Assembly: GCA_036172245.1 (NCBI GenBank)
Contig: JAYWIR010000005.1
Location: forward strand, 2,480,001-2,544,000
Direction: 5' to 3'
Length of the DNA stretch: 64,000 bases
DNA from: Raillietiella orientalis
Lineage: Eukaryota
Shown here: positions 32,291 to 64,000 of the stretch, in pieces
How the letters are laid out: every line of letters starts with the position of its first letter
How positions within the stretch are numbered: position 1 is the first letter of the stretch
Made by a program: the position numbers and the translations under genes
Notes under the pieces: generated by a model
Seen by the model: the letters and a program-made list of their open reading frames with translations, nothing else
What the model was told of the DNA's origin: nothing
Databases searched by the model: none

Positions 32291-32364
32291 TCAGGAGATG
32301 GCGTTACTCGTTTGGCATTGAAGACTCGCATGCAGAGCGCGCGTCACCCACTGGATACGTGGGA

Positions 32365-36475: not shown

Positions 36476-36484
36476 GTATTCCAG

Positions 36485-36720
36485 GTTTTTCACAAAGGTG
36501 AGCCGGAGCTTTTATTACTAAAATTTCTTACTAAGGAAAAAATTCTGTAATAAAGTCAATATTTTTTCAACAATGTTTCTCTTTTTGTCAGCACAGTAGG
36601 AAATTCTGTTTTGTGGCACTTGTCCTTACCAACCCGCAGGCCGAGAAGTTCCTACACACTGGCGCAGGGGCGGGAAAAATCAAAAAATAAGAAATAAAGC
36701 AAAAAAAAAAATAACACACA
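36485..36720 (-). repeat. E6: diverged tandem duplicate of the E7 3'UTR
   Basis: Aligns with 36730-36960 (ggcacttgtccttacc.acccgcaggccga, ttttattactaaaattt). Confidence 0.85.
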
Positions 36721-36729
36721 TTCCCGAGG

Positions 36730-39445: not shown

Positions 39446-41046
39446 CTGGTGCAGGAGAGCAGAGGCCAGTATCCGCCACAGTCCTTCGAGGACACCGTAG
39501 TCCAATAGCAGATGGGGGAGCGTGAACACTTACCCTCGCCGCTTACAGTTCGGGGAGACATCTCCCCCGAAAACAAGGTTCGTCCACTGGTTGGATCCAA
39601 ATGCACCAGCGTAATGACGGTTCGTTTCCAGTTTAGAGGGAACACAGAAGTGTTCAGACACGAGCAAGGGACCACAAGTTCTGCGGGGTGCACATTCAAG
39701 TGTTCACTCCACCGAAGGAGTCCCTTCGAGATGTGGCGAGGCGTTGCGGCGTCTGCCAGCTCACAAGTCCTACAGCCCCGCCAATGGGTCGTGTTGGTGC
39801 CGCTATGGTGCAGGCGACCCCCCATCTCGCCGGTTGGCGGCTCTCATCTCTTGCCCTGAGGGCTGGAAGCGCGTCGGCGAGGAGAGTGACGGCCAGGCGG
39901 GTCCACTTCTCCTGGCTGCTGCAGACCTCATCCACCGTGCAGTACGGGGAGAGGTGAACGCAACGGAGTTCCAGGAGGGAGACATCCTGTTGCTTTGCCA
40001 AAGCATGCAACGGTTCCTGCCGCCAGGCTTTACAGTTCGTTGGGCGCCAGGAGATTAATTCCTGGGATGCCACGAGTCGGTATAGCTGTTTCATCGGGAA
40101 ACCGAAGCTTCTCGTTGCGCGCTCGGTATACGGCCGCAGCGACAGAAGTCCATCGCTGCCGGTGCAGAGCCGCAGGAGCAGACGCGTAAGAGCGCACCAC
40201 GGAGTGCACCAAAGGCTGGAGAAAAGAGCCAACATTCGGAGCTGCACCTGAAACTCGATTCTCTCCAGCGTCAGGATGCCTAAGCCGGCATCCCGACGCG
40301 GAATTGCCAAGTCTTTAATGCGGATACTGGAAATCGAAGGACCACACAGAGCGTTCCTCAGCAGGCTGTGCGCCTGGAGCTTGACCGAGTTGGAGGGTGG
40401 GCGAAGAAAAATCAGGGGGCGCAAGAGGGGCAACGAAGTTGTTCCATATCGCGGCCCGCTCCGACAGGAGGAACCTTCAATAGTGGAACGGGCTGAGAGC
40501 ATTCGTGGCCTTCCGAAGGCAGTCCGACCACACTTCTACTGAGCTGATGTTCCCCAGCGGAACGCCCAAGTAATGGAAGGACGAAGCGGTCGGGATCCCT
40601 AGGCCGATCCATTCGGACTGCTTCTCCCACGGCACACCAAAAGCAACGGCCATGCACTTATTCCAGTTTACACTCATGCCCGCTCCCAGGCGAATCAGCT
40701 CGAAGAAATCCTCGAGACAGGACCCCGGGTAGATCATGGGTAAAAGGAGAAGCAGGTCATCAGATTAGGCCGCCACGGACGGCGTTCCTGACCAAGAGCT
40801 CGGCAGGTTGGCCAGCGTCAGTTTGTACGCCCTCAACATCAACTCAAAAAAGTTGCTAAAGAGTAGCGGACGTAAGCTGTCGCCCTGCCTGATGCTCCGC
40901 CGCTCCGGCACGCCGTACACATGGCAGCTGCTGAAGTAGTTCGAAAGCAGCGCGTGGCGCAAATACGCCACGAGGTGCACCGGGTGACCACGTCTCTTCG
41001 GGAGCTCTATAAGGAGCTGCTGATTCACGCAGTAAAACGACTTATG
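39446..41046 (-). mobile_element. Tx1-like element D2 (RT to Zn finger); its upstream part resumes at 63954-64000
   Basis: HKSFYCVNQQLL, RQGDSL, HYLG. Homologous to D1. Confidence 0.85.
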
Positions 41047-41684
41047 CGCTCGAAAGCGGACGTGTTTTCTCGGTGCTCCTCGTGCCAGGAAGTCTCCTCT
41101 AATGCTAGCGTCGTGTAATTCGGTGGTTGAACAGGCAGCGATGCCTGACGCGACCACCAGGGATGGACAGGGGGCGGTGGCAACGTCGCCCCCAAAGGCG
41201 ATGAAGGTGGGGGCATCCGCCCTCACAGAATCGGTCCCCGCTGCAGCACGGGCGTCGAGCGCCGTTGTGTCGGCGCCATTGCCTGCAGCCGCGGCGGAAT
41301 CAACCTATGTGGAGGAGGGGTATTACCCCTCATTGTTCTACAAGGTAGGCAATCTATATTCTTTAGAGAGCGCGCGCGCCTTCACGAAGGGGATGCGCTC
41401 TCTCGATGTGAAAGAGGAGGAGCTCAGCTCTATGACCATCCGCAGCAGGGGTCAGTACGTTGACGTCATCTGCAAACAAGCAGAGCTGGCCCAGCGACTG
41501 CTTCAAACCCCCTTGGTGATGGGGACGCGCAGGCTTCTCCCCATTACGGCGGACCGCAGCATGGAGGTCTACCTATTAGGCGTGACCACGCGGATGCGGA
41601 AGAAATAGGTTCGCGCCGCGTTGGAGGAAGACGGTACGGTCCACGCGCAGTGGACGAAAGTTAGTCCTTTTGAAGACAACACGC

Positions 41685-41779
41685 GGCTGCATCAGGGCCT
41701 TACGGCTGCACGCTTGACCGTTTGGGAGGGCTGCATCAGGGCCTTACGGCTGCACGCTTGACCGTTCGGGAGGGCTGCA
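41685..41779 (+). repeat. 44-bp tandem duplication in F ORF1
   Basis: Unit ggctgcatcagggccttacggctgcacgcttgaccgtt(t/c)gggag occurs twice, bounded by ggctgca microhomology. Confidence 0.9.
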
Positions 41780-44761
41780 CTCTTCCCCACAAAATGGTGG
41801 TCGATGGCGAAACCGTCGACCTAAGGTATGTGGGGAAACCGAAACACTGGGGCTTCTGCAATACGTGAGGCCAACTTAAAAATAGGTGTCCCAACGTGCA
41901 GTGCCACGAATGTGGCACAATGGGTTACATGAGGGATGTGTGACCAAAAGCAGTGCGGGTTGTTTCCAAGAGAAACCTTACAAAACGCGCTCGGCTGCTG
42001 CAGGAAAGGCTGGCGGCGAAAGCTGCCGCGAAAAATGTGCCACTTGCCCCTAAGACCGAGGCCGCAAACGAGATCTAGGAGAACAACGCCGAAGTAGTCG
42101 AGAAATCCTGCCAGGAGCCTGGGTGGCAGGTTACAACCGCCAAAAAGAGCAAAAAGGAGAGAAGATTGGAGAAAACACTCGCGTACCGCCAGAAAAAACA
42201 GCAGGCAAGCAAGCAGATTAAGGAATGCAGAGTTGTCGTTTATTACCCGGTTGCGGATGACGTTTATTGATAATATATTCTGGGAACTGTGTTTCCAGGC
42301 AATGGGAACAGAAGATTGTGAGTAGATTTCCCGGAACACATGCCGGGCACACTGAGAGTTCGGAACAAGAGGGTAGGGGACAATAAATAAATAAATTAGG
42401 TGGAAGGGCGGGGAAAGGGGTAGGCAGTTTAACCATTCCTATTTTTGGAAAAGGCGGTAAATGCCGCCGATCTGCGTCCTCACTTCTGCTCCCAAGTTTC
42501 GCCACCCGGCAGCCATTTGCAGGTTGCAGACTGCGATGTCGGGGACCGATGTTGGGACTGCTCGCATCTGCAATACGTGGCGGGCCCTGAAATTGACGCG
42601 GACGCAGCAGATGATTGCGACGACCGCTCCAAGAGAAAGACCGACACGCGTATAGAAGCGGCGCATCCAATCCAGTGGGGTGTCTACAAGGTGCAGAAGC
42701 GCTTAAGACAGCCGCTGCCACAGCTCCTGGAGGGCACCGCACTCAAACAACAAATGCGGAAGCGATTCCACCGCTCCGCATTTGGCACAGTTCGAGGACG
42801 CAACTCCCCCGGAAATCAGGTGCGCTTGCTGCTTGCAGTACAAACACCAATGCACCAGCAGAAAAGCGTCCTGTTTCCACCGAAGGGGAAAGAGAGTCGC
42901 GTCCAAACACGCAGAAGGGACCACAAGTTCATCGGTGGGTACCCCGAGGAGCTAACTCCACCGGAGAAGTCCCTTGGCACGAAGGCGAGGTGTGGCAGCG
43001 TCTGGCACTTCGCAAGTCCGCTAGCCTCCCAGCAGTCGGGTTTGGCCTGCGATTTCGCAAGCGATCTCCCACCTCGCCAGCAGGTCACTGTCGTCTCGCA
43101 CCATCAGTGCACACAGTGCTTCGGCGAGTGGCGTAGCGGCTAGGCGTGTCCACTGGTCCTGGTCTTCCAGCACCCCCCCCACTGGACAGTATGAGGAAAG
43201 GTTCACGCAACGGAGTTCCAAACGGGACACATCCTGTTGCTCTGCCCAGGACGATAAGGCTTCCTGCCTACAGGCGTTGAACTTCGTCGGCCGGCAGGAG
43301 AACCACACATGCTTCCCCAGAAGCGTGGCGAGCTGCTTCAAAGGGAAGCCGGATCCTCTCTGGGCGCGCTTCGTGCGCAGATGCAACGAACGTAGTCCGT
43401 CGCCATCCGTGCAGCGCCGCAGCAGCAGCCGCGCTGGAGTACACCAGGGAGTGGTCCAGAGCTGCGCACAAAGTGCCAGCATGCGGAACTGCACTAGCAG
43501 TCCGATCCGCTCCAGCGTCAGGATGCCCAATACTGCATCCCGCCGAGGAGCCTCCAAGTCCTTCAGGCGTATCCTGGATCTCGCCCGTCCCCACAGGGCA
43601 ACAGGCGTTGCGCCCGGCGCTAAGCCGAGTAGGGAGGGGGACAAACAAAAAAGAGGGGACGGAGGAGGGGGACAACGAAAATGTTCCACACGAAGGCCCG
43701 TTCCTACAGGAGAAACCTGCCGCCTTGGAACGGGCCAAAAGCAGTCTCGGCCTTGTGAAGGCAGTCCGACCACGCTTCTGCTGGACAGAAGGCGCCCAAG
43801 GGAACGCCGAGGTACTTCAAGCACCTGCCCGTGGGATCCCCAGGCGGATCCAGTAGGACTGCCCCTCCCACGTACAGCCAAGCGGTACAACGGTTGATTT
43901 CGTCCTGTTGACGCTCAGGCCCGCTGCCCGACGAATGAGGTCGAAGAAGTCCTTGAGCCTGGACGCCGGGGTGGACATGGGCAGCAGCAGGAAAAGGTCG
44001 TCAGCATAGGCGGCCACGGCCGGTGTTTCCGGGCAGGAGCTCGGCAGATTGGCCAGCGTCAGCCTGTACGCCCTCAGCACCAACTCAAAGAAGATGCTGA
44101 AGAGCAGGGGGCTTAAGCTGTCTTCCTGCCTCATACCCCGCCGTATGGGAATGCCGTACACGTGGCGCCCGCTGAAAGAGATACAGCATAACGCGTGGCG
44201 CCAGCAGGAGCGCAAGTAGGCGATGAAGTGCGTCGGGAGGCCCAGGCGTTCCAGAAGCTCCAGAAGGAGGTCCTGGTTTACGCTGTCGAACGCTTTGCAG
44301 AGATCGACGGCTACCGCTAAGGCTCCCGGCATTCCATCATGCCTTGAACACCGCCGCTTACCTTTGGCAGCGGCGATTTTGGCTGCCTAGCTCTGCTGCG
44401 CCACGCGCTGCTGCAACTCGAACCATGTTTGCGCGAAGAAGAGATTCGCGTTCATGGACCGCCCCGGAACAGCATACGTCTGCTCCGGACTTACCAAGGA
44501 CTCCGCGATTCTCCCCAGGCGCGCGACCCATAGCTTGGAGAACAACTTGACGTCCGAATTCACCAAGGTGATCGGACGCCAGCTGCTGAGGTGGCGCAAA
44601 TCACCGCCTTTCGTCAGGAGCCGCACCTTTTCTGAGCGGAAAGAAGCGGGAACATCTCCCGTCTCAAGCATCAGCGACGGTCGCGTACGGACGTGCTTTT
44701 GCGTCGCTCCGCGGTAGATTTTCTCTTGTGTGTTTTTGTTCTGCTGTGCTTCTGTGCTGCA

Positions 44762-46167
44762 ATGGGAGCAAAGAAGAACATCAGCCGCAAGAAGGGAACG
44801 CCACCTACTCCTGAGATTGCTGCTTCGGCTGCTAGCAAGGAGCCTCTGTCCTCGGCGACGGCGAGTACATTCGCCCAGGTCGCTGCCCTCGCGGCTACGA
44901 TGGGACCTTCGCCCGATAGCCCTGAGCTTCAGGCGTATGTAGCAAATGGCTACACGCCTGCACTCAGGTATAAGATAAGTGTCCTTATGCCTGAGCGGGT
45001 TGGGAGCGAGTTTGGCCACGAACTCCAACGGATTGGAGTTCAAAAAGGCCAACTGGAGTCCATCATGCCCATGAGTGGGTGCAGCTACTGGGAGGTGTCC
45101 AGTAAGGACGTTCTCCTCACGCAGCGTTTGCTGCACACGGCGCTGCTCATTCGTGGGCAGGAAATACTCCCTGTCACAACGGACCAGTCGTTCGTTGTCC
45201 GGCTATGTGGAGTGTGTAAGGGCCTTTCGGACCTCCAGGTCGTGGAGGCCCTTGAAAAATTCGCTACCGTCCACGCGCTTTCGAGGCTGCCAAACCCAGC
45301 TGAAGGGTTCGAAGACCACCACAGCGGGCTCGCGCAAGTGCGAGTGACGATGACGGATCGCCGTGCAATGCCCACGCGACTGCAGGTAGATGGAATGACC
45401 GCCCGCCTGTGGTTTGCCGGGCAAACGCGTGTATGCGCGGAATGCGGGCAGGAGGGTTACCGCATTACGAAGTGTCCCTCGGCCGCTTGCCGTTACTGCC
45501 ACGAGCACGGGCACACTAAAGGAATGTGCCCGGAGCTCCTTTCAAAAAACGAAAAGCGCAGGAACGAATCGCGTTCCGCATCGCGGAATAATCGCCGCGA
45601 ATCGAGAGAAAGAAACATCAAAGCTTCGAAAAGCGTTGCAAAAACCGCGACCACGCACGTGCAGAAAACTGTTTCTCGCCCCCACAAAGAAGGGGTGAAA
45701 AACACAAAAAAAATCGTCGCGGCAAAGCCTCCGGCTATCGACCCGAAGGAAGCTCGCGAAAAATGCGACCTTTCTACGAGACTTCGCAGCCAATTGTTGA
45801 ATGCAGGAGACATTGTGCCGAAGGTCAAAGAGCCTCGTACTGTCGGCATCACGACCGCAAAGCCACCTACCAAGGCCTCGACGAGCGGCGCGGAATGCGG
45901 TCGTTCGCCCGATACGGGAAAAACGCGCCCGCGGGCAAAGAACACCGCGCCGTCTGAAGCTACCGCGGCCAAGGTGCCCCAGGAGCCGAGTGCCGCGAAG
46001 AAACAGCCGGCAAACCCACAGTCCTCGCGCGCGTATGCAGCGCCTACTGCGGCCAAGGAAGAAACTGCTAGGGTTAGCACAACCGCTACAGCAGTGCCCC
46101 CAACGGTCGCAAAGGCAACGCGCGAACCCTCCGATCTGGAAGAGGCAGCGCCTCTCGCGATCGCTAA
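44762..46167 (+). pseudogene. G ORF1 N-terminal part (gag-like, zinc knuckles); continues at 51889-52564
   Basis: CAECGQEGYRITKC and CRYCHEHGHTKGMC. Interrupted by C2. Confidence 0.85.
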
Positions 46168-46349
46168 GTTTCCCCAAGTCCCACAAGGGGTGGGGTAAGT
46201 TTATTTTTCTATAAAAATACAATATTACATTCGCACTCTCATTCACTCAATACAAACATTTTGCACTTGGGGGTTCCTGGGTTGCACTAGAGTTCTGCTT
46301 CTCAGGGGGGAATAACAGCTGGATGGTCCCGGGCGTCGTCCTGGATCCT

Positions 46350-49300
46350 CTACAGGATGAATCGGTACGCCCAGGCGTGGATCTTCCCGCAGTTCCTGAT
46401 GCCGATTTCCCTCTTCAAGAGCCCTTGTAGGATCTCCATCGGTGGTGCGGCTCTCCTGGCTTTCCTCATTTTCCACCACCGCACAAGAATGGCAGTGATG
46501 AAGAGGGCTATGGTCGTCCTCACCATGGGATTGTAACAGGGAACATTGCCATCCCCATGAAACATCCCGGCGAGGATCAACATAACGGACTTGTTGGTAA
46601 GTCCTATAATCCTTTTCAGGATCAGCCAGTCATGCAGCAGTGTGGGACACGTCAAGACGTGAAGTCTCGTGTCGTCGTCTCCACATGCTGCGCAGTCTCG
46701 GTCTTCCCGTCTTCCTGTGAAGTGCTGCAATCAGGACCCACTCTGGATTCCTCCGTGATAAAACATCAGGAGGTCATCCTGGGTGCCCGGCGGAAGGTCA
46801 CTCCTCCAGAGAGTCGTGCCGATCGCTAACAGGTTGAACCGTTCACTCCTGTAGCGTTCGGTGGATTCCTGGAGGGCACTGGTATCACGGTCGTTTTCTT
46901 GGATAAGCCTTCGGAGGTTTGTTCTGGTTACCCTCGACAATGCGAAGTCGTTGTGGTTGAACCACACTTCGCGGGTCCTGTGGATAAACCTTCCTCACAT
47001 CATCTCTGTATACCGAAGTATACGATTTTGATGTAGGTAGCCTCCTCGCCTCCACTCCTGGATTTGCAGTAGGGTAACACTGGACCGCTGGTAGATCCAG
47101 CTTCTCGTGTCCGGCGGGACAGGATGCAACCAAGGGATCACCAGGATGGACTCGTCCTGCCAGAGTTCCCTGCTTCGCGGCACGATCTTGATTTGGTGCT
47201 TCCGCACCAGCCGTTGCTTCCTCCTCCAGGTCGGGTCGAGTGTTATTCATTCCCCTACTTTGCCTAGCAGCGCAGTCATCAGGCCTTTCGAGTTGTTAAG
47301 CAACAACGCGTAGGCCCGGTGCGCCGCATACGGCCAGTCATCCCAGTAAGTGGCCATGTCCAGGATGTGTCGCGTATCCATGATTTCCATGGAATGTGGA
47401 AGCGACTTCATCCCGGAACCGCCTTCTTCCCTGGGACGACACAGGGGTTTCAGTCTTACTCTTGGGCGATAGTGGCCCCAGAGTGTTTTTCTTTGCAGCT
47501 TGTCGAACTCCCTAGTAGTGTCCTTGTTCATCCTCGCGAAGGCCGCCCCTAAAAGCACTTTCGGAAGGAGTACTCCGTTCCATATGTTGGCCTTTCGCTT
47601 CATCCCAAGGTCCGTTCGGGTGTACTTGGCTGCTTCTGTCGCCGTTTTTCCCAGGATTTCCTTCCACAGCAGCTTCGACGCAGAGTCGTTGCCGATGTAG
47701 ACTCCCAGGTACTTGGCCGTGTCCACCGTACGGAATCCACTACCCGTTAGAGTGGAGAGGTTCAGGATTCCGACGGGCAAAAGCTGGCTCTTCTGGGAAT
47801 TGATTTTTAAGCCCAAGCCCTGTTCCATCAGGTCCACCACATCCAGAAACGCACGCTGATTTTTCTCTCCTTTGATGAAGATGAGTAGATCATCAGCGTA
47901 TGCCAGATGGGTAAGACGCTAACCATCGATGGTAATTCCGCTTAGTCGTCCGCTCTTCTCGATAAAGGACGACAACGCCTCCATATAGATGACAAACAGC
48001 ATCGGACTTAGCGAGTCGCCCTGTCGGACTCCTCTTTCCATCCTGATTGCTGCCGTCTCCTGGCCGTTGATCTTGATCCGGCAGTACTGGTTCTGAAGTA
48101 CCGCCCTCACGAAGTTGCTGAAGTGTTCCGGAAGCCCTAGCTTCTCCAGAACCTTCAGCAGCATCCCGTGGTCGATGGAGTGGAAGGCCTTCTCCATGTC
48201 AGTGAACACCAGCACCAGGTTCTCGCCGACGTATCGACTGAGTCCAACAGTGGCCTGGGCACACTTGACATTGTCCGACATGTGTCGTCCTGGGACTGTA
48301 CATGTCTGGACCGGAGAGATCAGCCTCGACATGACCTTGCCTAAGCGGTTGGACCAGATCTTCGCCAACCACTTGGCATCGGAGTTTAGAATCGAGATTG
48401 GCCTCCATTGGGCGATCTGGGTAGAGTCGCCTCCTTTCGGCAGCAATCTCATCCGACTCTCGTGAAAGGACTGAGGTAGTCTGCCTTCTTCCCGGATGCA
48501 GAGGGTCAACTGGTGGAACAAGCGCAGGTAGGCGTGCAGGTACCGCTGATAGTGCGTGATGGGTACACTCTCAGGGCCCGCTGCCACGTCCTTGCGAAGT
48601 TGCCCAAACGCAGTCTTCACCTCTTCTTCGGAGAACTCCTCCTCCAGTCTGTTCCGCTGGAGTTCGTCGGTCCTCTTCTCGAGATAGCTCAAGAAGGCCT
48701 GTTGACTAGAGCGACACAGCTGTTGTCGCCTGAAGTGTTTCGTGTAATGCCTGTGAAAGGCATCCACGATGTCCTCAGACGGCTGTCGCTTTTGGCCGTC
48801 GTACTGGATGCAGAAGATATCTGCTGCCTGATTTCTCTTCTCCAGCACGCCGACTTCTCCTTTTATGTTATTGAGGACGTACTGACTCTCGTACTGATCG
48901 AAGTACTTTGAGAGGGAGCGATCTTGGATGTTCAGCTCCCGGTACGCCTCTTACCTCAAGCGCCTATCCCCGAACTGCATGTTCGCAAACAGGTGTATCC
49001 TGTGTTTCAGTCTGTCCCAGTCGGCGACTCTTCGGATTGTTGTTGCGCTCAGAATCGCCTCCAGGACAGCCGGATGTCCGGGATGGGTAGCGAACCAGGC
49101 GGGCATGCAGATGAGCGCCGCCCTGGTGCCTTGCCTCCGCCGAGGATTCTCCGTTCTTAGGGAAAACCGCACCAGGGGGTGATCGGACACCGTAGTCATA
49201 GTGTCGCGAAACCCCTGGAAGCGGTTCCCAAGTTCCGTGCTGTGCAGGACGTCATCGATCGTCTTCTGGCTTGCTGTTCGCCAGACCAGTCCGAACTCGT

Positions 49301-49820
49301 CGGATAGCCGTCGATACGCCGTCCTTCCTCTGGCGTCTTCTGAATGAATGATCTCATCCAAGATGTTGAGATCGCCAGCAACAATCACGACGTCCTTGGA
49401 AGCAACCTTTCCACGGAGTGCTGCATGCAGCGCCTCCGCACAACGATGTTTTAGACTGTGCGGCCCGTACACGTTCACCAGGATAAGGTGAACAGTTGCG
49501 GACCAGGCCAGTCGCACGCCGATGGTTCGTCCGGGTTGAAGACAAAACACTCCCAGAATAGTGGGGACCAAGTGGTTCTTTATTAGCACCGCCACACCCT
49601 TCGTGTTCCGTTCTGCTTCGCTGACGAACATCTGCCCGTTGAATTGCCGTTCCATTCGCTGGCTGATCTCCAGACCCATCCTGTGGGTCTCCTGCAGGCA
49701 CACGATGTCTTGTTGTGCGATGGTCCGCACAATCCTTCTTCTTTTTCCCTGGTCGACCACACCGTTTACGTTCCAGGAGGCGATGTTCAGCCTCCTGGCG
49801 GTCGATAGGGTAAAGGTCAT
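46350..49820 (-). pseudogene. C2 ORF2 (APE, RT, Zn finger) with a few stops and frameshifts
   Basis: SWNVNG, LQETH, NVYGP, GDLN, SDHP, QWRPIS, DMEKAF, RQGDSLSP, AYADD, KYLG, CAACGDDDTRLHVLTC. Confidence 0.9.
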
Positions 49821-49833
49821 AAAAGGGGAAGAC

Positions 49834-51782: not shown

Positions 51783-52542
51783 TGCCTTGGCGTGTTATTG
51801 GGTATAGTTTTAAACTAGCAATAATCACGCCTCCCTTTCGTTCAGCGGCGGCGATACCGCCCGTGCGCAAGGCTCTCGCGATCACTAAAGGAGTTGCTTA
51901 CGCCTGCGTGGAGGCAGCACTTTAAGATTCATCCAAGGCAACGCCGCTTACATCCGTGGAAGCAGCGCCATCTCAGGATGGCAAAGATAACTGCGACGCG
52001 AAGGAAGACGGCTGGATGCAGGTGAGAAAGATCATTAGAAAGAAATCATCAAGGTCTTCGCAGCTCTGTGTGAAGATAAGTGGGCGAAAGAAACCCGCAA
52101 AACCTTCCCAGAAAAAGATTGCGATTATTTCCTCCTGCGCAGTCGTCCTCTCGCGGCTGGAGCGGGAAGCTGCTGCTGCGGCTAAAAGGACGAAAGTCCC
52201 AGCCGCAGTTGCAGAAAGCGCTGGGAAACAGGCAGCGAACGATTTTCCTGATTCCGGGGAACAACAGCAGCGGCTGGCAAGCCCTCGACTGTCGGATTCT
52301 GGTCCAGAGTCTGACAGAAAGAGCACACAGCGCGACAACCGCCCGAAACCGCGCAATCGCCTCCCGAAGACCCGCAAGCGCGTGGTTGCCGAGGAGGAAC
52401 TGTTGCTGGGGAGCAAAGAGGAGGAAAAGGACCTCACCTCTGAGCTACCGGCAACAAGCAGTGCGGCTTCGAATGGAGATGTCCAGTCTCCGAGATCGAC
52501 CTCTCTGTCTCGTGACCACTAGCCGGACAAGACGAGAAATCT

Positions 52543-55500
52543 GTGCTCACCTTCCCAGCCTTAAAGCAGGATGTCGCCTCTATTCGTCGATTCAGCGTAG
52601 CCTGTTGGAACGTCAATGGGCTGCGCAGGGACGGAAAGAGGCGCGACGTGTCAGACACCCTGCGACATTTCGATTTGGCGATCCTTCAGGAGATGCATTA
52701 CATCTCCGATGCGGAGGTTGCCGAAATCGAACAGTTCGCGGGTGGCACCCTGTACTGGCGAGAAGGTTCTGCACAATCGTGCGGAGTCGGTTTTCTCGTC
52801 AATAGTAGGATGGCGGGAGTGGTGCGCAGCGTTCGATTCGACCAGGAAGGGCGAATGGGCCAACTTGTACTCAAGTGGTCAGATTCAATCGACCTCGTCG
52901 TAACGAACGTCTACGCGCCAAGCGGCTTTCATCGGCCTGTCGAAAGAATCGAGTTCTTCGACGTGCTGGAGAGCCAATGGCTCAGAAACTCCGGACCTAG
53001 AGTGGCGCATCTCGTCGCAGGGGACTTCAACGTCCACCTGCTTTCCAACGAGACGCGGTCCGTGGCGGAACGGTCGCGGGTGGAAGAGGCATGCGCGTCG
53101 GTGCACGCGCGTAACTTGGAAGCCGGCGAGCCTGGACTGGAAAGGTGCGTGGATCACCTCTACCTCGATGAACACCTACTCTCGCGAGTGGGAAGGAGAG
53201 GCAGGGTGCCGTCCACGTTATCGGACCATGATAGGCTGGAGTTCGAGCTACTCCCGCCGGGCAAGGGTCCTCCAAACAATGTTCGGAGGATGCCGGCGAA
53301 TTGGCTGAGTCATCCGGAAGCGGCGGAGCATCTTCGCCAGTTCCTTCGCGGCTTTGCCATCCGGGAAATCGCAGACTGGGACCATCTTAAAAGATCGGTT
53401 CGCGAGTTTTGCGACCGGTTCAGGGAAGGCGTGGTCAATAGCAGAGCATTTCTGCAGGCGCGCACCTTCTCGAGACGTGCGGAAGTCCGGCAACTCGCAG
53501 AGTACAAGGCGAGGGCCGAGCACCAGGTCTGGAAGTTTGGAGCGGCTATTCTGCTCGACGACCAAGGCCGGGAATGCACGGCTCCTGCCGAAGTGCGACG
53601 AGCACTAAAGCTTCAATTCTCCTCGCTCTACGCTAATTCCCCGACGGAAAGAGTCCTCTCCATACTACTTTTGCCGCGGGCTGCACATGGCATCGGCGAG
53701 GAGGAACGCGCTCGTCTCGACGAACCCTTCACGTTGGAGGAAGTTTCTTCCGCCATCGCAGGACTCAAGAGACGGAAGACGCCAGGTGAGGACGGACTGC
53801 CCTCGGAGATCTATCAGAGCTTCGCGGAGGAACTCGCCCCACTGGTGCTTAGAATCTCGACGCTGATGAGGGTGACCGGCGATGTCTTTTCTTCCTTCCG
53901 TTCAGCAAGGGTGCGTCTCCTTCCGAAAGAAGGGGATCTGCGCCAACTCAACAACTGGCGTCCGATCACATCAGTGAATACGGACGTCAAGTTGTTTTCG
54001 AAGCTGTGGGTCACGCGCTTAGGGAAAGTCGCGGAGTCCGTGGTAAGCATGGAGCAGTCTTACGCTGTACCGGGTAGATCCATGGATGCGAACCTTCTTT
54101 TCGCGCGCACCTGGTGGCAGCTTCAAGAGCGCGTTGCTTCGGATAGCCGAACAGCGGGAAGACCTTCTGCCGACTGCGTGCGCCATTGCGGACGGACGGG
54201 AGAAAGGCCGGGAGCCTTGGCACTAGCAGTACATTTGCACAAAGCATTCGACTGCGTAAACCAGGAACTCCTCTTGGAGCTCCTGGAGCGTCTTGGGCTT
54301 CCGAATCATCTTCTCCTGTACTTGCGCTCCTGCTGGCGCCATGCGATTATCAACTTGTATTTCAGTGGCTCCCGCGTGTACGGAGTGGCCGTGCGCAGAG
54401 GCATCAGACAGGGCGACAGCTTAAGCCCGTTGCTCTTCAGCATCTACTTTGAGTTGGTGCTAAAAGCGTACAGGCTGACGCTGGCCGTCCTGCCCAGCGC
54501 CTCTCCGTGCACTCCGTCCGCGGCAGCATACGCCGACGACCTTCTGCTTCTGTTGCCCATGTCTACTCCGCCGGACTCGGTCCAAGACTTCTTCGAGCTG
54601 ATCCGTCGTGGAGCGGGCATGAGCGTTAACAGGGCGAAGTGCTCCGTCGTGCCGGTGGGTGCGTCGTGGGAGGGACAGGCCGACTGGATACGCCTGGGGA
54701 TCCCCACTGTCAGGTACTTCAAGTACCTTGGAGTACCGTTGGGCGACTTCTGCTCGTCTGAATCGTGATCGGCCTGTCTTCAAAAGGCAGAGATGGCCCT
54801 AGGTTCGTTCATGGAAGGCAAGTTCGTCTTGCCGGAAAGGGCGTGCATATGGAACACTTTCCTTGCCCCCCTCCTCCGCCCCTTATTTTTTGTTTGCCCG
54901 CCTCCCTATGTGGTTAAACTCCGGGCGCAGCGTCTCCTACGTAAGGTCTTGTGGGGCGCTGCGCGATCCAGGGTTCGCCTCAAAGATTTGGTGGCGCCAT
55001 GCCAGGACGCAGGCCTGGGCATCCTGACCATTTAGAAGATTGGACTGCAAGTGCAGTTCCGGCTTCTATCCCTATGTGGGAAATTGTGGTCTAGTCACTG
55101 GTGTACTCCGGCTCGCCATATTCTCCAGCGATGTGTCGGCAGTGCAGGATTGCTTTCGTTGCTGCCGCGCAAGCTTCGCCGGAGAACTGGATTTGGCTAC
55201 CCACTAAGGCAGTTGTCCTCGTTGCTGTTAGCCCATTCCTGGATTTCCTGCTGCCCCTCCAATTGGAATGCTTGGCAGCAGGAAGCTGTGGAGCACTGGA
55301 CGTCCACTTTGGATGTGCGCTCAGAGCAACTGCGACCCTTACAGGGCCTCTTACGCAAACCGCTAGGAGTGATCCTACAGGACTGGTCGCTTTGGTCCCG
55401 GATAGTCGTCTCACCCATTGCCGCAGCGCTGTCTGCTCTCAGGGCAAACAACGACATTAGCCAACCGGCAAGGTGGGAGTTCTTCTGCAGCATTTCAGGA

Positions 55501-56094
55501 GTGGGAAGACTGCTGAGCGGCTGGAAAACGAGCGTGTTGGTAGACGCTGCCACTCCTCGTTACCTGGCAAAGGGACTTCTTCGTTGAAGTGAGGTTCTTG
55601 GATTACTCCCGAAGATCTCGTGGTTCCTATTGTGTGGACAGCTCCGTGTTCCCGCTTCGATGAAAACATGATGTTCTTCTTTTTCTGCACTGAAGATTCC
55701 AGTGCAATAAGCGCAGAAACTTGGTTACAGCAAGAGTCGTTACCCCGAACTGCCTCAGGTGCGGGGCGATAGAATCGCTTACGCACCTGCTCCTTGAAAG
55801 TAGTGACTTGCGGGAGTTCTGGCGGAGACTTGCTTCGGCAATTCGTCGTCCTCAGGACACTGCCACAGACCTGCTTCGACGCTTCTTCAGCAAAGACGGA
55901 CTGGATAAAGGCGCTGTTATCGCAACAATCTCTCGCATTCGCGCCATCGTGATCGCCCGCCGTAAACCAGAAGGAAGCTCTCAGCGAACAGACGCCTCCA
56001 GAATCGCTGCGAACCTTATGAAAGCAGCTGTCAGGTGGCCTCATCTGCCTAGAAAATTCTCCAGGGAAGTCGCCATTGTCAAACAGCCCTTCTA
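52543..56094 (+). pseudogene. G ORF2 (APE, RT, Zn finger) with late stops
   Basis: 741-aa open stretch with the APE and RT motifs. Continues in fragments to CLRCGAIESLTHL. Confidence 0.9.
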
Positions 56095-59000
56095 GAAAGA
56101 TTAGGAACGTTTACTACCAAAGATCCCTGACCTCACCCTCCACTGTTTTTTTTGTTTGTTCTCTTATGTTTTCTTTATTTTGTATCCCTCTCCCTCCGTT
56201 CCTTTCTTTTAGAAGGCACCCTGCGTGCCGGTGATCTTTCTGAACTGAACTTTCTGTATGGGCGTTTCTTGTGTCTTGAAAGGATGAATTTGCCTTCAAG
56301 ATTGTGGTTTGTTTATACAAATAAACGTCCCGGCGCAACCAAGTTTAAAACGCATCAGCGAGGAAAGGCTTAGCACCAGAGGGACGAGCTCCGCCGCGAA
56401 GCACTGAAAGAACTCCGCGGGCAGGCCATTCTCCCCAGGCGCCTTATCCCTCTTCAGGCCCGCAATGGCGAAAGATACTTCTTCCGCCCTGAAGGGCCAA
56501 TCCAATCTGGCGCGTTCCTCCTCGTCGATAGCAGGGTTGCCCTTCGGAAGAAGCAGCTCGGAGAGACTGCGTTCCGTGGGTTCCTCCGCGTACAACGAGG
56601 AGTAGTAGCGTTTGACTACGCGGTGTACTTCGGCTGCAGCCGAGCATTTCTGGCCACCGTCATCGAGCAGACAAGCCGCTCCAGACTGCCAAACCTGGCG
56701 CTCAGCCCTGGCCTTGTACTCCGCCAGACGCCGGACGTACGGGCATCGGAAGAAGGTACGCGCCCACAGATAGGATCTGCTGTTCGCGGCACCCTCCCCG
56801 AAGCCGTGGAGAAACAGGTGCAAAGGGAAGCGGCAGCAGAACTCGCGGACCGATCTTTTCAGATCGTCCCAGTCCTCGAGTCCACGGATGGCGAAGCCCC
56901 GGAGGTGTTGGCGAAGATGCTCCGCTAAGCCAGTCGGCCGGCAACCTCCAGACATTTATCGGAGGCCCTTTGCCAGGCGGGAAGAGCTCAAACTCCAGTC
57001 TCGGATGATCCGAAATCGCGGACAGCAGGCGCCCTCTCCGACCTACTCGTGAGAGCAGGTGTTCATCGAGGTACGCATGGTCCGGCAATCTTTTCATCCC
57101 GGGCTCACCAGCAAGCAAGTTTTGCACGCGCACGGACGCGCATACCTCGCTCACCAGTTGCTTCTCCTCAAGCGGCATCTCTCCTCTGTTAGCAGGTGGA
57201 CGTTGAAGTCTCCTGCAAGGAGGTGCGTCACGTTAGGGCCGGAGTCAGCGAGCCAGCGGCTGCGAGGGTCACCCAGGAATGCAAGTCGCTGGGCGTAATG
57301 CCGGCCCCCGCTCGGCGCGTCGATGTTCGTAACGACCAGGTCGATCGATTCGGACCACTTGAGGACAAGTTGGCCCACACGACCTTCCTCGTCGAAACAA
57401 ACGTTCCGCACCGCCTCCGCCACCCTGCCTCGGACGAGGAACGCGACTCCCCACGTATGCGCGCAGCCTTGCTGCCAGTGTAGCGTCCCGCCCGCGCGCT
57501 CTTCCAGATCCGATGCCTGCCGTTCGGAGATGCTATGTATCTCCTGCAGCAGCACCAGATCGAAAGAGCGGAAAGCGTTGGCTACCGTCCGCCTTTTGTC
57601 AGCATCACGCAGCCCGTTGACATTCCAACAGGCCACGCTGACCCGACGAGCGGACGTGAGTCCACGCATCACTGCTGCGGTCATGACGGCGTGCTCCTCG
57701 CCCCGCCCGGCGAGAAGTCAGCTGGTAGGAGAGCGGATTGGGAAACGGAATCGCTTCCGTTCGCCACCACATCGCGCCCCGCTGAGTCCTGGGAGCCGAG
57801 GATCATCGCCTCGGTCTTCGTGCCGGAGCCGGAACCGCCTCCGGCAACAGACTCGTACTTTCGCACTTTAGCCCGGCGCGCTACCGGCTTAACCCGGGAT
57901 GCGCGCTCCATGTGTTTGCACTCGGACTCCACCTCGGAGTCCGAATGCCCAGCGCGAGACTTGCGTTTTGCCAGTCTCTTTTTGTTCCGGCAGGTGGAGG
58001 CTTGCCCTGTCCGCGCGGGGGTCGTCGCAGTCGCCGACGCAGCTTCCGGAAATTTGGCTTCCGCAGTCGCCCTCTCGCGCGAAGCGACGGGAACAGAGCA
58101 CGCAGCCTTGGTGCGTAACCAGGTACGCGCTTTCTTCGGCGTGCTTCTCTTTTGCCTCCCACCCACCTTAAGGATGGGGAATATTGAAGGGTCAACCTTC
58201 TTCTTCCCCTTTGTGAGCGTCCTGAAGACGAGAGTCCAGCCCGCGTCGGGGACGCCCTCCTGAGAGGCCGACGCCTCCCTCAATTGTTTGGCCGGAGATG
58301 CCGGCTCAGGTTTCGCGCTCGCGGCGGGAGACGGCTCCGTCCCCGTTACGCACTGCACCTGCTCCTTTGCCAATGCGGGCGAAACGGCGGTCATTGCCCT
58401 CGTCCCGCGAGGCGCTATTGCAGCCTACGCCTCTAGTGCCTTCGGCGTAAAAGACGTGATCTCCTCCGCCGTAGGAGGAGACTGCCGTTCCGAGGCAGCT
58501 CCGAGGGTACCCGCGCACGGTTTTCCGTGTGTTCCGCTGGACGAGTAAGCGGACGCGGACGGTTCAGCAGCCTTGATTGAGAGCGTGCCCGCACTCTTAG
58601 GCTGCTTCGAAGGGGGTGATTTGCCCTCAGGGCGACGTGGCATCTTTCCCGTCTGCGCGGCTGTCTAAGATGGTGGCTTCCCTAAAGCAACCGCACCCTT
58701 TTTCGCGGGACCGCCACTCGGAGATGCCCCGCCCTTCGCGCCCGAATTCTCACGTGGCACAACTAAGGACCTTTTCGGCGCGGAAGGGGTCGATTGTTGG
58801 CGGCTTTTCGCCTGCCGCTTTCTCTTCAGCTCGGCGCACTCTTTGATGGAGTGGCCGAGCTGTTTACAATAGCGGCAGTTGCGTGAGGGGCACGTCCACG
58901 GAAGGTGGTCCTCTGCACCGCAAACGCCGCAAGCCGGTCGCTGACCTGCAAATTTAAGGTGGACGATCGCATCGCCCACCTGCAAGTGCGGAGGCATTTG

Positions 59001-62000
59001 CCTCCTATCCGCCTTGGTGACACGCGCCATGGCAAGTCCGCTGTGGAGAGATGCAATCCTTTTGATCGGATTGTGTGCTCTCCACAGCGCGTGCACCGTG
59101 GCGAATGCACTTAGTGCAGCGACGAGCACGCGATCGGGCGTGTTCACCTAGACGGCGGATAATCGGACCACCAACGACTGGTCCATGGCCGACCGGACGA
59201 CCTCCTTCCCGCGGATATTTAGCGGGGTGCCGAGGAGGCGCTGGACTAGGGATGCCTCTTTGCAGTGCACCTCCCAGTGTCCAAGCGCGTTAACCGGCAT
59301 GACGGCCAGGAGGTCGTCCTATCGGACCCCAACGCGCAAAAGCTCATTCCACAAATTTCCTCCGACCCCGTGGGAGATAGCAAAACTCACCGAATAGCAG
59401 AGCGCAGGCTTGTTGCCATGGGCTGCATATGCCTGCAGCTCCGCTTCGTCGGGCAGTGCTCCGTTGGCTGCCGCCACCTTGACGACGGCTGCGAAGCTTC
59501 TCGCCGGTGGCGAGACACAACAATCAGAGGCGGAACGGACATCTGGAGTAGACTCTCCACTTCCAGTAGCAGCCCATACATCCATCTTTTGCTGCAGGGG
59601 CTCCGTGGACATCCCAGTGGACGCACTCGGGCACATCACACACAAGAAGACGGAAAGGAATCACGTTTGAGGAGCAACAAAGAACACGTCCGAGCCGAAG
59701 TTGTGGAGCGTATTCCCTACCTCTGCGAAAAAGAACTCGCCGCTACTGACGACAATTCTCCTGTTGACTCTGTCAAGAGCGAGGGGAGCGAGCCGGCGGC
59801 GGCGTCCGTCATCGGCACCACCATCGATGACGTAGCCTTCGCGTAAGCCACGGAGGAGCTGGCAGCCTCGCTGCAGCCAGAACCCTCCAAGGCTGGCAAG
59901 AAGGCCGCAAGGCGTCCGGCCTCCCCTCTGCAGACACCCACTTCCGACCCCGAGGTGCAGGCTGGAAGCGCAGCCTCCGTTTCCACGGCACCCCGCAAGA
60001 AGCCTGGACGTAAGTCCACAAAGCCGAGGAAGCTCATCTCCCCCGTCGAAGGGGAAGAGATGGCTTTCGCAAGCGAGGGTGCCATAGGCGTGGGAAACTC
60101 TCGGGACCCGTCGCCCAAGAGACTCTTACGCGCAGACACGAAAGGGATGGAGGGGTGGAGGCCGAACAGGTGCCTCAGGTGCCTGAGAAGGCCGAAAACC
60201 CCATGCACATCCCTCCCGCACGCAAGAGGTGGGCTCCCCCACACCTTAATCTTCCCAGCAGTAATGCCGGGAATCTCCTCCCGGCGTCGTCTGCGCATCG
60301 CCTTTTGGAACGTGAACGGCATGACAGACGCCGGCAGGACACGAGACATGGCCGCCCTTCTGGAGTCCTACGACCTTGCGCTGTTGCAGGTGATCCAGGT
60401 GATCTCTGCAGAACAAGCGCAAGAGATCGAACAAATCTACGGTAGGCGGCTATGGTACAGGTGTGGAAGACCGAAAAGTTGCGGTGTCGTTTACCTGCTT
60501 AGGGCAGCCGTCCAGGCCGCGGCTTGAGGCGTGCAGTTTGACGATCACGGTCGTGTCGGTCAGCTGAGTCTCAGGGGGTCCGACTCGATCGATCTGATCG
60601 TCACGAACGTGTACGCACCGAGCAGCGTGGACCTGATGAACAGGAGGGCGAGGAAAGAGATTTTCCTTGCCCTCCGGCGCGACAGGCTGACCGAAGCAGC
60701 CGTGCGGAATGCTTATCTGGTTGCAGGCGATTATAAAGTTCGCATCGACCACGTGTTTCTTGACCAACACCCGTGCCCTCGCGTTGGCAGGCGCTGCAAA
60801 TTACAGTGCGAGCTGTACGACCATCGCCCGATAGACCTCGAGATCTATCCGCGCGACAGGAGCCCCCCCTCGTTATCGTGGCGTCTCCAAGGGGACTTCC
60901 TGAAGCACCAGGACGCGGCGGAACATCTTCGCACGTTCCCACGGAGTTTCAGGCTGCGGACACTTCAGGATTGGGACCGCTTCAAGCGGTCGGTCCAGGA
61001 GTTCTGCGACCAGTTAACTCTGCACCGCCTACCTACGGGTTTTGTAACCGGGGTTCGTAACGAACGAGCCTACCTGCAGGTCTGTTCTTACGCCAGGTCC
61101 CCCGACATCCGCAGGCTGGCGTAATACAAAGCGGGAGCCGAGGAACAATCCTGGCAGTGCGGATCGTTTAGCTAGCTGGACGATCAGGGCAAGGAGCACT
61201 CGGCACCCGCTAAATCCGCGGCCTGCTGCGGAGTTACTACTCCTCCCTGTATGCCAGGCCACTTCGGAGAGGAATGTCTCACGACTTTTGTTTTCGGAAG
61301 GCGCTCCACTGATCGGGGAGGAGGAGAGAATGTCCCTCGACGAGCCTTTCACGATGGACGAGATCGTTTCGGCCATCGAAAAGCTCAAGAGGCGTAAGGC
61401 TCCTGGGGAGGACGGTCTGCCCGCGGAGTTTTAGCAAACTTTCGCGGCTGAGCTTAACCCCCTGGTACAGCAACTCACTTTGCTGACACGCGAGTAAGGT
61501 GACGTTCACGCCTCGTTTCGTTCAACAAAGCTGCGGCTCCACCCTAAGGGAGGAGATCTAAGGAGCATGAACAGCTGGTGTCCCATCACAATAGTGAATG
61601 CGGACGCCATGTTCCTGGCTAAGGTTTGGGCAGAGCGTCTGGGACGGGTTGCCAACATCTTCGTAAGCCCGAAATTGACATATGCTGTTCCCGGGCGAAG
61701 CATCGAGGCGAACCTGTTCCACGCTTCCACCTGGCTAGAGCTCCAACAGAAAAGGAGCTTGGTGCGCAGCGGGAATTCCGGTGCGTGCGCCGGCAAGGGG
61801 TTGGATGGTCGGGTTGGGGAAAGAGCCCTTGCGGTCGCAATCGACTTGTGCAAAGCATTTGATTGCGTCGACCAGAATCTCCTTTTGGAGCTTCTGGAAC
61901 GCTTGGGCTTCTCGGCCTCATTAGTAACCTATCTGCGCTCCTGCGGGCGCGACGCGCTCATCAACGTTACTTTCAGCGGGCAGACCGTGCACGGCGTGCA

Positions 62001-63953
62001 GGTCCGGCTTGTGATCCGGCAGGGAGACAGCCTGAGCCCCTTGCTCTTCAGTACCTACTTTGAGTTAGTACTGAGAGCGGACATGGCAACTCTGGCGCAC
62101 CTGTCGCACGACTGTGCCGGTACGCCGGCCGTTTCAGCGTACGCGGACGACCTTCTGCTGCTGCGTTATATGTCCACCCCGGCTGCGGCGATCGAGGAAT
62201 TCTTTGACCTGCTGCATCGGGGAACCGGACTTACGGTGAACAGAGCAAAGTCGTCCGTGATGCCAGTTGGTGCGGCGTGGGCAAGGCAGCAGGACTGGGT
62301 CCGTTTGGGGATCCCCACGGTGAGGTACTTCAAGTACCTTGGTGTGCCGTTGGGGGACTAATCCCCTGCGGAAGCGTGGTCAGGCTGCCTCCAAAAAGTA
62401 GAGACGGCGATTAGCCCGTTCCGAGGCTGCATTTTTTTCCTGCCTGAACGGGCCGCGGTTTCGAACACGTTCGCAGCTCCTCTCCTCCGCCCTCTGCTTT
62501 CTGTTTGCCCCCCCACAGAGAGAATTAAAAAGCGGACAAAGAACCTCCTCCGTATTGCCCTTTGGAGCAACAAGAGGGCCCGAGTCCGCTTAAAGGACTT
62601 GTGCGCTCCGCGTCGGGACGGTGGTCTGGGCCTCCGGACTCTGGAGCGGCTGGAGCTTCAGCTCCAGTTATGATTGTCGGCACTTGTTCCAGAGTTGTGT
62701 TGCACCTGTCGTTGCGTCCCTGCTCGTCTCCTTCTTCAGCAAGCCACGGGCAAGACGGAACTGACGTCGTTTCTTGCACTCCGTCTCCGCGTCAACCGAT
62801 GGGGACTCCAGCTACGGAGGGTGGCTGCGCTGTACCGGAGAAACCCAGGATTGGTCACCTGTCGCCCTTTGAACGGTGGTGCCTCGTTGCAGGAAACCGT
62901 TGGAACGGGGTACAGTTCGGCATGCAACGCTCCCAACAGGAACGAAGGTTCCTGTTTAGGGGTTACAGAAGTTGCACGCTCCGTGAGATCCTGAAGGATC
63001 CAAAGAAGAGAGCGTTGGCAGAAAGAACCGCCCTCGCTGCTGCGCTGCCCTCCCTAATGGAAGATCTGGACAGCGAAGTTGCGGCGAAGTGGGAGGTTAC
63101 AGTACCAATCTCCTGGAAGGAGAAGAAGTTTGGATAGTGGAAGACGGGTCAGCTGACTGGCGCTGCCACCTCGAGTACGCACCCCCATGGACTTCTACGC
63201 TGGGCGCGCTGCTCGACATTCTCATTGAACGTTTAAAGTAACCCCCGGTACTGAAGAACACCTCTACCCTCCCCTTAAAATGGCAGGAGTCGACTCTCCT
63301 GTTGCTGCATTGAAGACTCTCCTGCAACGCCCGCTGGCACTACTGGACATGTTGAGCACTGGACCCCAATTCCGTCCGGTGCTGGGAACGGTATTGCCTC
63401 CTCCACGTGCTTGTGGAGTGTGTTGCCCTTCGGCGCCTTTGGTTTCGCTTTGCCGCGGCCATCGGAATCCCCTGCGGCAATCCCAGGGTCGTTCTGAAAG
63501 CCCTCTTTGCTGCCGACGCCCTGCGGCCAGCGGCCTCGTTAGCAGCCCTGTGCTGCCTCCGCGGGATCGTCGCCGCCTGGAGCAAGGCTACGGGAGGACC
63601 ACACGACCAGTGTGCCAGCCAGCCAGTCTCTTAGTTCCTGAGGAGGGCGTCCAGATGGCCCCACCTGGATCCAAGCATGCAGCAAGAGCTTGCCGGAATC
63701 CTGCAAAGGATGCAACGGCCCCACCAGCAACTGTGATCTCTTTCCGTACCCTCCCAGTTTTTTCTTTTTTTTTTGTTTTGTTTTTTGTTTTTCCCCCTTC
63801 CCTCTGCTGCCGTGGTGAACCGTACCGGTCTGCGAATTGGTGACTTGGCAGGCTCTGTGTTTCTTCGTGCGTGGCTGGAGCAATGGTATGGCCACTGCAT
63901 GTCTTTGTAAATGTTTATTTTATAATAAACGCCCCAGCGAAATTCGGGTTCAA

Positions 63954-64000
63954 ATCGAACGCCTTGCGGAGATCGACCGCGACCGCCAAGGCACCTGGCG
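63954..64000 (-). mobile_element. Continuation of D2 RT (PGALAVAVDLRKAFD)
   Basis: Minus-strand translation directly precedes the D2 sequence at 41046. Confidence 0.75.

Follow-up and report, generated by a model that had tools for sequence, protein, structure and literature searches.

A five-level nest of L1-like retrotransposons with a U4 snRNA–LINE chimera at its core in a LINE cluster of Raillietiella orientalis

Insertion of long interspersed elements (LINEs) into earlier transposon copies is documented in several systems. Zepp and ZeppL LINEs of Coccomyxa, Chlorella and Chlamydomonas are described as targeting existing copies, forming tandem arrays of 3′ ends and standing out as GC-rich (PMC3446292, PMC8226300). 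Human L1 elements nested in L1 number 21559 in sense and 9899 in antisense orientation, a bias ascribed to sequence features of the host strand (PMC2836564). Many Tx1 families, not all, are target-specific: Tx1L inserts into Tx1D, Keno into U2 genes and Tx1-Mar into Mariner-N4_AMi, and Tx1-8_Crp and Tx1-4_AMi insert into long terminal repeat retrotransposons; small nuclear RNA (snRNA)-derived 5′ additions are known on Tx1-mobilised elements (PMC4494074). Chimeras of snRNAs (U1 to U6) and LINE-1, bounded by target-site duplications (TSDs), are also known and are ascribed to template switching or RNA ligation (PMC13174262). Here we analyse 64,000 nucleotides of Raillietiella orientalis DNA (assembly GCA_036172245.1, contig JAYWIR010000005.1, positions 2,480,001 to 2,544,000, forward strand; hereafter the window, to which all positions refer), in which five L1-like LINE copies lie one within another at 39447-64000, the innermost joined to a complete U4 snRNA. 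The locus adds a further case of LINEs inserted serially into one another within a LINE cluster, an arrangement of a known kind.

The copies were mapped by tblastn with the open reading frames (ORFs) of the best-kept copy in the window, E1 (ORF2 at 918-4367(-), ORF1 at 4853-6265(-)). Below, q denotes residues of the E1 ORFs, and E1 coordinates are positions in this full-length copy. The map yields five LINE copies of the L1-like type, with endonuclease and reverse transcriptase, in the order D2(-) > F(+) > E8(-) > G(+) > C2(-), as a sequence-only reading of the window had proposed. D2 is matched over ORF2 q522-1060 at 39455-41046. F is matched over ORF1 at 41162-42240 and again at 59610-59927, with ORF2 q1-1150 at 60210-63733, and E8 over ORF2 q400-1139 at 42460-44674, then q1-402 at 56350-57540, with ORF1 at 58701-59444. 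G shows ORF1 at 44924-45535 and picks up again with ORF2 at 52516-56086, where the frame is open for 750 aa (52516-54765). C2, matched at 47250-50919, belongs to a second L1-like family. With the end motifs described below, the pieces of the nest, and the full-length copy used as query, are as follows.

39447-41049, minus strand: 3′-ward part of D2, the outermost host (ORF2 q522-1060; tblastn; the alignment of D2 with the related copy D1 stops at 39446)
41050-42236, plus strand: 5′ part of F, starting TCGAAAGC-GGACGTG (41058), with ORF1 to E1 coordinate about 1134 (tblastn, end motifs)
42237-44680, minus strand: 3′ part of E8, ORF2 q400-1139 and 3′ end (tblastn, end motifs)
44681-46168, plus strand: 5′ part of G, 5′ start with GGACGTG at 44689, then ORF1 (tblastn, end motifs)
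46169-51874, minus strand: U4 + C2 insertion as a whole
46169-51735, minus strand: C2 LINE body, second L1-like family, with CCHC ORF1, apurinic/apyrimidinic endonuclease (APE) and reverse transcriptase (Pfam, PDB search, sequence)
51736-51874, minus strand: full-length U4 snRNA copy, in sense at the C2 5′ end (Rfam RF00015, 92.6 bits, model positions 1-138 of 138)
51875-56351, plus strand: rest of G, with ORF1-ORF2 linker, ORF2 and 3′ end (AATAAA at 56320 plus 26 nt)
56352-59698, minus strand: 5′ part of E8, ORF2 q1-402, ORF1 and 5′ start with GGACGTG at 59691
59699-63955, plus strand: rest of F, with ORF1 end, ORF2 q1-1150 and 3′ untranslated region (UTR; AATAAA at 63924 plus 26 nt)
63956-64000, minus strand: 5′-ward part of D2 past F, reading PGALAVAVDLRKAF and leaving the window (translation, E1 alignment)
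701-6235, minus strand: E1, full-length copy, antisense inside B1(+) (ORF2 open for 1150 aa; TSD)

Past every guest the host resumes at the same element coordinate, as had been claimed. The positions on either side of the guest, on the E1 scale, are 3466 and 3421 in D2, 1134 and 1152 in F, 3075 and 3050 in E8, about 1363 and 1545 in G, and 2549 and 2529 in B1. The final 45 bp of the window, which are D2 past F, translate to PGALAVAVDLRKAF and near-side D2 translates to AHKSFYCVNQQLLIEL; both align with E1 ORF2 GALAVAVDLHKAFDCVDPNLLLELL, and the decayed RKAFD/HKSFY duplication reported around F is thereby confirmed. Only these 45 bp of D2 lie past F, and its edge at 39446 is a cut made by another copy: D2 lacks a native 3′ end, being interrupted at 39447 by the 5′-truncated (-) copy K, and D1 runs on to its own 3′ end. 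At the other extreme, the innermost (-) guest had been read as C2, but the insertion includes the U4 snRNA as well.

The predicted proteins of these copies were compared with domain and structure collections. Stop-to-stop ORFs of 100 aa or more number 229 in the window; Pfam matches occur in 10 of the 112 that end beyond 38 kb and in 10 of the 117 that end at or before it, and nearly all are to Exo_endo_phos, RVT_1 or zf-CCHC. Exo_endo_phos and RVT_1 share one ORF in G (52516-54765) and in E1 (918-4367) and lie in successive ORFs in C2, so that the APE-type order of ORF2, an N-terminal endonuclease followed by the reverse transcriptase, is present. The best solved relative in a PDB search is human LINE-1 ORF2p (E=1.1e-42 for E1 and 1.1e-35 for C2), and R2 proteins score more weakly (E=6.8e-13 and 3.2e-21, respectively). 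Judged from these predicted proteins, the elements are members of the L1 superfamily. A zf-CCHC match in C2 ORF1 reaches 22.3 bits (cut-off 20.8), with just 12.5 bits in the E-like ORF1s, and zf-RVT in E1 ORF2 reaches 17.5 bits, under its cut-off of 27.5. The 53 relatives in public protein collections are distant, at 21-31% identity, and mostly unnamed. Within the window, self-comparison gives 66-82% DNA identity among repeat copies, and ORF2 identity between lineages is 28-67%. E1 itself is near-intact, with an ORF1 of 471 aa and an ORF2 open for 1150 aa; a single in-frame stop at about 4368-4370, upstream of the open ORF2 and in the endonuclease part (...FDLELLQ*IH), falls at what we take to be the position of the conserved Q-E motif.

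The termini of the guests are well defined. The E-like guests (E1, F, E8 and G) start TCGnnnnC-GGACGTG...GCTCC, with GGACGTG at 6229 (E1), 41058 (F), 59691 (E8) and 44689 (G). At E-like 3′ ends, AATAAA precedes about 26 nt that hold a short hairpin or inverted repeat (for example, CCCGGCACACCCGGG) and a short A-rich end. Examples are the following.

701-731: E-like 3′ end
11234-11266: E-like 3′ end
56320-56351: E-like 3′ end
63924-63955: E-like 3′ end

All five guests end in this manner, AATAAA being followed by roughly 26-31 nt with a short hairpin; C2, whose 3′ end reads ...AATAAACTTACCCCACCCCTTGTGGGACTTGGGGAAA, terminates ...GGGGAAA. The sequence AATAAACG has eight matches in the window, of which seven mark six element ends, the E8 end carrying two overlapping matches, and the eighth is internal, at 3714; at the element ends about 26 nt follow and then flank, without an A-run. 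No poly(A), A-run or microsatellite tail was found at E-like 3′ ends in the window. A poly(A) or simple-repeat 3′ tail is common in L1-superfamily elements, although not universal.

Host duplications at these ends were assessed by comparing the 25-nt flanks outside the motif-defined termini with 20000 pairs of flanks drawn at random from the window. Three guests carry the following duplications.

E1: GGAGATTCCGGAGCG(T), 15-16 bp, 15/15 positions, P=0.00045
G: GCATCAGCGA at 44668-44677 and 56352-56361, 10/10 positions, P=0.001 (11/12 by the count of the sequence-only reading)
U4 + C2, left copy: CTCGCGATCGCTAAG at 46154-46168 (flank comparison)
U4 + C2, right copy: CTCGCGATCACTAAAG at 51875-51890 (flank comparison)

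The duplication around U4 and C2 matches at 13/14 positions ungapped, or 15/16 with one indel (P=0.0006). Of the duplications proposed earlier, those of C2 and G, with that of E1, thus exceed random flank pairs at P of about 0.001, but those of E8 and F do not by themselves. For E8 the candidate is AGTTGT at 42231-42236 and 59699-59704 (ACAACT on the other strand; 6/6, P=0.10), and for F it is a decayed pair at about 41034-41049 and 63956-63970 (7/8, P=0.15). Both cases therefore rest on host continuity. That ACAACT abuts both E8 ends exactly is suggestive only, the boundaries having been partly chosen by us.

At the core of the nest lies a chimera. The U4 copy, the only U4 snRNA that Rfam finds in the window, retains its Sm site; it lies with its first base next to the right TSD copy (51875-51890), and C2 comes directly after its last base. 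Because U4 sits exactly between the TSD and C2, the two entered as a single insertion, and the innermost insertion is a chimera of full-length U4 snRNA and LINE within a single TSD. A complete sense snRNA joined 5′ to a LINE, the pair being enclosed by one duplication, is the arrangement of snRNA/LINE-1 chimeric retrocopies, of which U6/L1 is the usual type and U1-U5 forms are rarer (PMC13174262). The present case differs in that the snRNA is U4, the partner is a non-mammalian L1-like LINE without poly(A), and the LINE part, at 5.6 kb, is not strongly truncated. The C2 ORFs are split into at least four pieces, and alignment of C2 with its relative C1 is unreliable upstream of about 51275 (23420 in C1), that is, over the C-family 5′ end. 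The N-terminal region of C2 also contains a tandem repeat at 51341-51480 (27-bp unit, 5.4 copies, 69%), and another lies in the ORF1 region of F at 41685-41779 (44-bp unit, 2.2 copies, 98%).

A nest implies an order of ages, and coding damage agrees with it. Stops plus frame switches relative to E1 ORF2 number 16 over 1162 aa in F, 11 over 1136 in E8, 6 over 1137 in G, 6 over 560 in D2 and 0 over 1150 in E1. Decay decreases from outer to inner copies, so the outer copies are the older ones, as the nest requires, and the chronology is sound.

We consider it probable, with moderate confidence, that the locus is a chronological stack of ordinary LINE insertions made by target-primed reverse transcription, the alternation of strands being a small-sample outcome. 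The nesting, the termini, the duplications, the relative ages and the chimera are established by the data above: the four E-like guests are full length, and a host duplication of 6-16 bp flanks each guest. On this view, several co-resident L1-superfamily lineages would have landed successively in older, already dead copies within a GC-rich LINE cluster. In the innermost event, C2 RNA would have been copied and then the whole U4 snRNA, by a template switch or after prior RNA ligation. Growth of the cluster would follow from LINE DNA being the largest local target, and perhaps a preferred one. The alternative that separate repeat copies were mis-joined during assembly is very improbable. Mis-assemblies do occur in repeat-rich regions, but each junction here is paired with a partner junction, host continuity and a TSD, and copies that are 66-82% identical would not collapse or be confused; the window yielded no positive sign of mis-assembly.

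The alternation of strands was evaluated by counting all contacts in the window between a native element end and another LINE. Five antisense cases are resolved on both sides: E1 in B1, F in D2, E8 in F, G in E8 and C2 in G. Another four are seen from one side, namely the B1c 3′ end (11266) in the E3 interior, the E2 5′ start (about 10668) in B1c, the D1 3′ end (about 27325) in the C1 interior and the E5 3′ end (32362) against Z(+) at 32223-32361. The first three had been listed before and are borne out (E2/B1, B1/E3 and D1/C1); the fourth, at 32361/32362, is added here. Excluded as unassignable were both flanks of element H, the K/D2 junction at 39446, the deletion junction B1b/E2 at about 8040 and two borders between LINE and unique DNA. 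Same-strand junctions are also present: the 3′ end of K′ meets the 5′-truncated start of Y (36485), the 3′ end of K is followed by 14 bp and then K′ (about 36731), the 3′ end of Y lies directly on the 5′ start of E5 (35875/35865), and at about 22.8 kb X1(+) is joined to an undefined end of C1(+). When they are included, the antisense fraction becomes 9/11, 9/12 or 9/13, none of them significant (two-sided P=0.065, 0.15 and 0.27, respectively). A strictly antisense rule therefore fails for the window as a whole, given the (-) chain at 32.4-39.4 kb and the same-strand X1(+)/C1(+) join. The figure of 1/32 put forward for five antisense nests is correct as a one-sided value that includes E1 in B1, but it becomes 1/16 two-sided, and the four alternations of the nest alone give 1/16 one-sided. 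Since the pattern was picked after the fact and chosen among very many windows, all orientation P values are weaker still. Chance in a small sample is the likeliest source of the alternation; at the most it reflects a moderate orientation bias such as L1-in-L1 nests show.

Several observations weigh against a stack of ordinary insertions without preference. If only opposite-strand interiors are counted, 9/9 junctions are antisense (two-sided P=0.004), and no same-sense case occurs among the clean two-sided nests. The same-strand junctions differ in kind, joining a 3′ end to a 5′-truncated start, and may have another origin and belong in another count. Three of the 12 placed breakpoints lie within a single 15-bp site of ORF2 (P=0.005 if sites fall uniformly; post hoc), which speaks against wholly random targeting. 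Finally, a unique AT-rich stretch of 9.7 kb is without an insertion, and the 54 kb round about it are LINE on LINE.

The first of these observations bears on true antisense self-targeting, in which the endonuclease or priming step would prefer the sense strand of resident relatives, for example where it is exposed in transcription. All nine junctions between a native end and an opposite-strand interior are antisense, five of them resolved on both sides, and by our reading the priming nick falls on the host sense strand in every one of the nine. However, the sample is small and was chosen post hoc, same-strand head-to-tail joins occur in the same window, an ORF2 hot spot is used both ways (E5 and E2 antisense, K′ same-sense), no common nick motif was found, and the hosts are decayed copies whose transcription is conjectural. 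We therefore regard a mechanism of this sort as doubtful. In human L1-in-L1 nests, LINE likewise enters LINE by target-primed reverse transcription and guest and host strands are biased (PMC2836564), but the human bias is towards sense, at about 2.2:1, whereas here there is an apparent antisense excess, without A-tails and without a T-rich nick motif. An antisense rule for LINE-in-LINE nesting was not found in the available portions of the literature on nested LINEs, their orientation and Tx1 targets. Such a rule would rest on 9 versus 2-4 junctions in one window, where rule and luck are not separable. If it were true, it would mean that LINEs can recognise the strand of a copy already in place, and it would bear on the growth of retrotransposon-built clusters and centromere-like islands and on the origin of nest orientation bias, whether in the endonuclease, in transcription or in purging.

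The same-strand joins are concentrated in a head-to-tail chain that adjoins the exact first base of the nest interval and that the sequence-only reading had left out of its count.

32362-39446, minus strand: chain of E5, Y, K′ and K (tblastn, end motifs, alignments)
32362-35865, minus strand: E5, with its native 5′ start at 35857 and a 170-bp internal deletion
35875-36485, minus strand: Y, 610 bp
36485-36731, minus strand: K′, 3′ UTR only
36732-39446, minus strand: K, 5′-truncated

From D2 through K, K′ and Y to E5, all (-), native 3′ ends abut the neighbouring copy at a 5′ start that is either truncated or full. Such a chain might arise if insertion were orientation-neutral and same-sense nests were lost through direct-repeat recombination or template jumping, leaving hybrids with tails that look 5′-truncated. 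The joins have this appearance, in that a native 3′ end is followed by a copy starting in ORF2 or the 3′ UTR (K/K′/Y); the direct contact of the Y 3′ end with the E5 5′ start, the deletion in E5 and the common start nucleotide of K and a second K-like piece, M, point the same way. However, nested lineages that are 66-77% identical in DNA are a poor substrate for recombination unless they were formerly closer, K and D2 are joined at non-homologous positions (E1 coordinates 3139 and 5048), and the events are undated. On balance, purging of same-sense nests seems rather unlikely, and we continue to favour serial insertion with fortuitous alternation.

The chain at 32362-39446 recalls Zepp-type arrays, end-addition arrays or the outcome of serial template switching. 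M (32362-32909) and K share 80% identity and a starting nucleotide, AT[A/G]AGCAGCTGGCG, and their starts (32909/32910 and 39446/39447) join different DNA, E5 at E1 coordinate 2978 and D2 at 5048. Several assignments of these pieces were considered and rejected. D1 and D2 do not share a truncation point, since D1 runs to its own 3′ end at about 27325. Y (35875-36485) is not the missing 3′ part of D2; the overlap of about 110 bp is merely homologous and the D1 tail is unlike Y. M (32362-32909) is not the rest of D1, being 80% identical to K and having no listed match to D1 or D2. A TSD for K′ is too weak to accept, with just CT..GGAAT in common, and the 3′ UTR may equally well have been duplicated in tandem.

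The choice of target was examined from the 12 host insertion positions that could be placed, at E1 coordinates 1140-5048. Three breakpoints coincide at CACTGGA..ACG.GGG, E1 coordinates 4932-4947.

32340-32361, plus strand: Z, which ends ...CACTGGATACGTGGGA
10669-10690, plus strand: B1c, which starts CTGGAAGGACGCGGGG
36470-36485, minus strand: Y, which starts CTGGAATACGT

In six intact copies the three align to one ORF2 site just before the C-terminal cysteine motif, and each joins the native end of another copy. The guests there are E5 and E2, in antisense, and K′, same-sense. If this is a preferred cut site, its use in both orientations means that no strand rule applies there; alternatively, two of the three breaks may mark positions of repeated 5′ truncation. 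For the coincidence of the Z(+) end with the Y(-) start, three accounts were considered, namely twin priming, an inversion of Y and joining by microhomology, and none fits the order of the pieces. The remaining 9/12 sites are scattered without a common motif, and no common nick motif or consensus was seen in the flanks of the sites examined. The claim that the family targets its own relatives thus receives some support from the one ORF2 site but not from the other nine.

LINE DNA has 52-62% GC and a CpG observed/expected ratio of 0.9-1.2, element H has 46% GC, and the unique stretch at 12.7-22.4 kb (9.7 kb) has 39% GC and a ratio of 0.73. CpG ratios at these levels speak against vertebrate DNA. 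A GC-rich or LINE-directed target preference would fit these values; simple accumulation where LINE DNA dominates the target fits too.

These data bear on Zepp-like targeting of a region or site without an orientation rule, in which existing LINE DNA would be preferred, for its GC content or for particular structured sites, and nests and tandem arrays of 3′ ends would pile up. Zepp is described as doing just this in GC-rich clusters, and the insertion of copies into earlier copies and the 5′-truncated 3′-end arrays are common to both (PMC8226300, PMC3446292); insertion into existing copies with nests and 3′-end arrays is what the five-level nest and K/K′/Y/E5 display here. The three breakpoints at E1 4932-4947, where Z ends and B1c and Y start (P=0.005), and the GC contrast between LINEs (52-62%) and the unique stretch (39%), together with the tandem array of 3′ ends, speak for such targeting. 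However, 9/12 sites lie elsewhere and have unrelated sequences, recurrent 5′ truncation may account for two of the three hot-spot breaks, and by our estimate a preference-free model of growth already places most later insertions in LINE DNA. We therefore consider it unlikely, though the foremost of the alternatives to serial insertion without preference. In contrast to Zepp and ZeppL, the best-resolved events here are full-length guests in antisense hosts of several diverged lineages, and the likeness is one of description.

Tx1-clade LINEs share the L1-superfamily architecture and provide a precedent both for transposon targets and for snRNA-derived 5′ ends (PMC4494074). However, no single fixed target sequence, as used by many Tx1 families, is found here: 12 sites are spread across the host element and only 3/12 positions coincide, and the clade likeness is again by description. 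A combined proposal is that L1/Tx1-like lineages prime preferentially on the sense strand of relatives, which would generate alternating nests, with a double-nick site in the 3′ part of ORF2 usable from either nick. We think this improbable; if true, such a strand-priming community would be the counterpart, outside green algae, of Zepp self-targeting, with a strand rule in addition. The suggestion that the locus is an undescribed self-targeting system was too strong, as Zepp/ZeppL clusters, transposon-targeting Tx1 lineages and L1-in-L1 orientation bias are already published.

The window thus supplies a clean, datable case of serial LINE-in-LINE insertion. The U4-LINE chimera and the 3′ ends without an A-tail are additions beyond human L1 chimeras, and these two, with the common breakpoint site, are side points worth keeping.

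Two other features of the window lie outside the nest. The unique stretch holds a 359-aa coiled-coil ORF at 15755-16831(-), for which no relatives were found among longer proteins and otherwise only generic coiled-coil clusters, mostly chordate. Element H, at 29105-32220(+), is a different, C-rich LINE with C2H2-like motifs upstream of the reverse transcriptase. No APE match was found in it, and its best matches among solved proteins are to R2 (E=9e-15, compared with 2e-7 for L1). D1(-) borders it on the left and Z(+) on the right.

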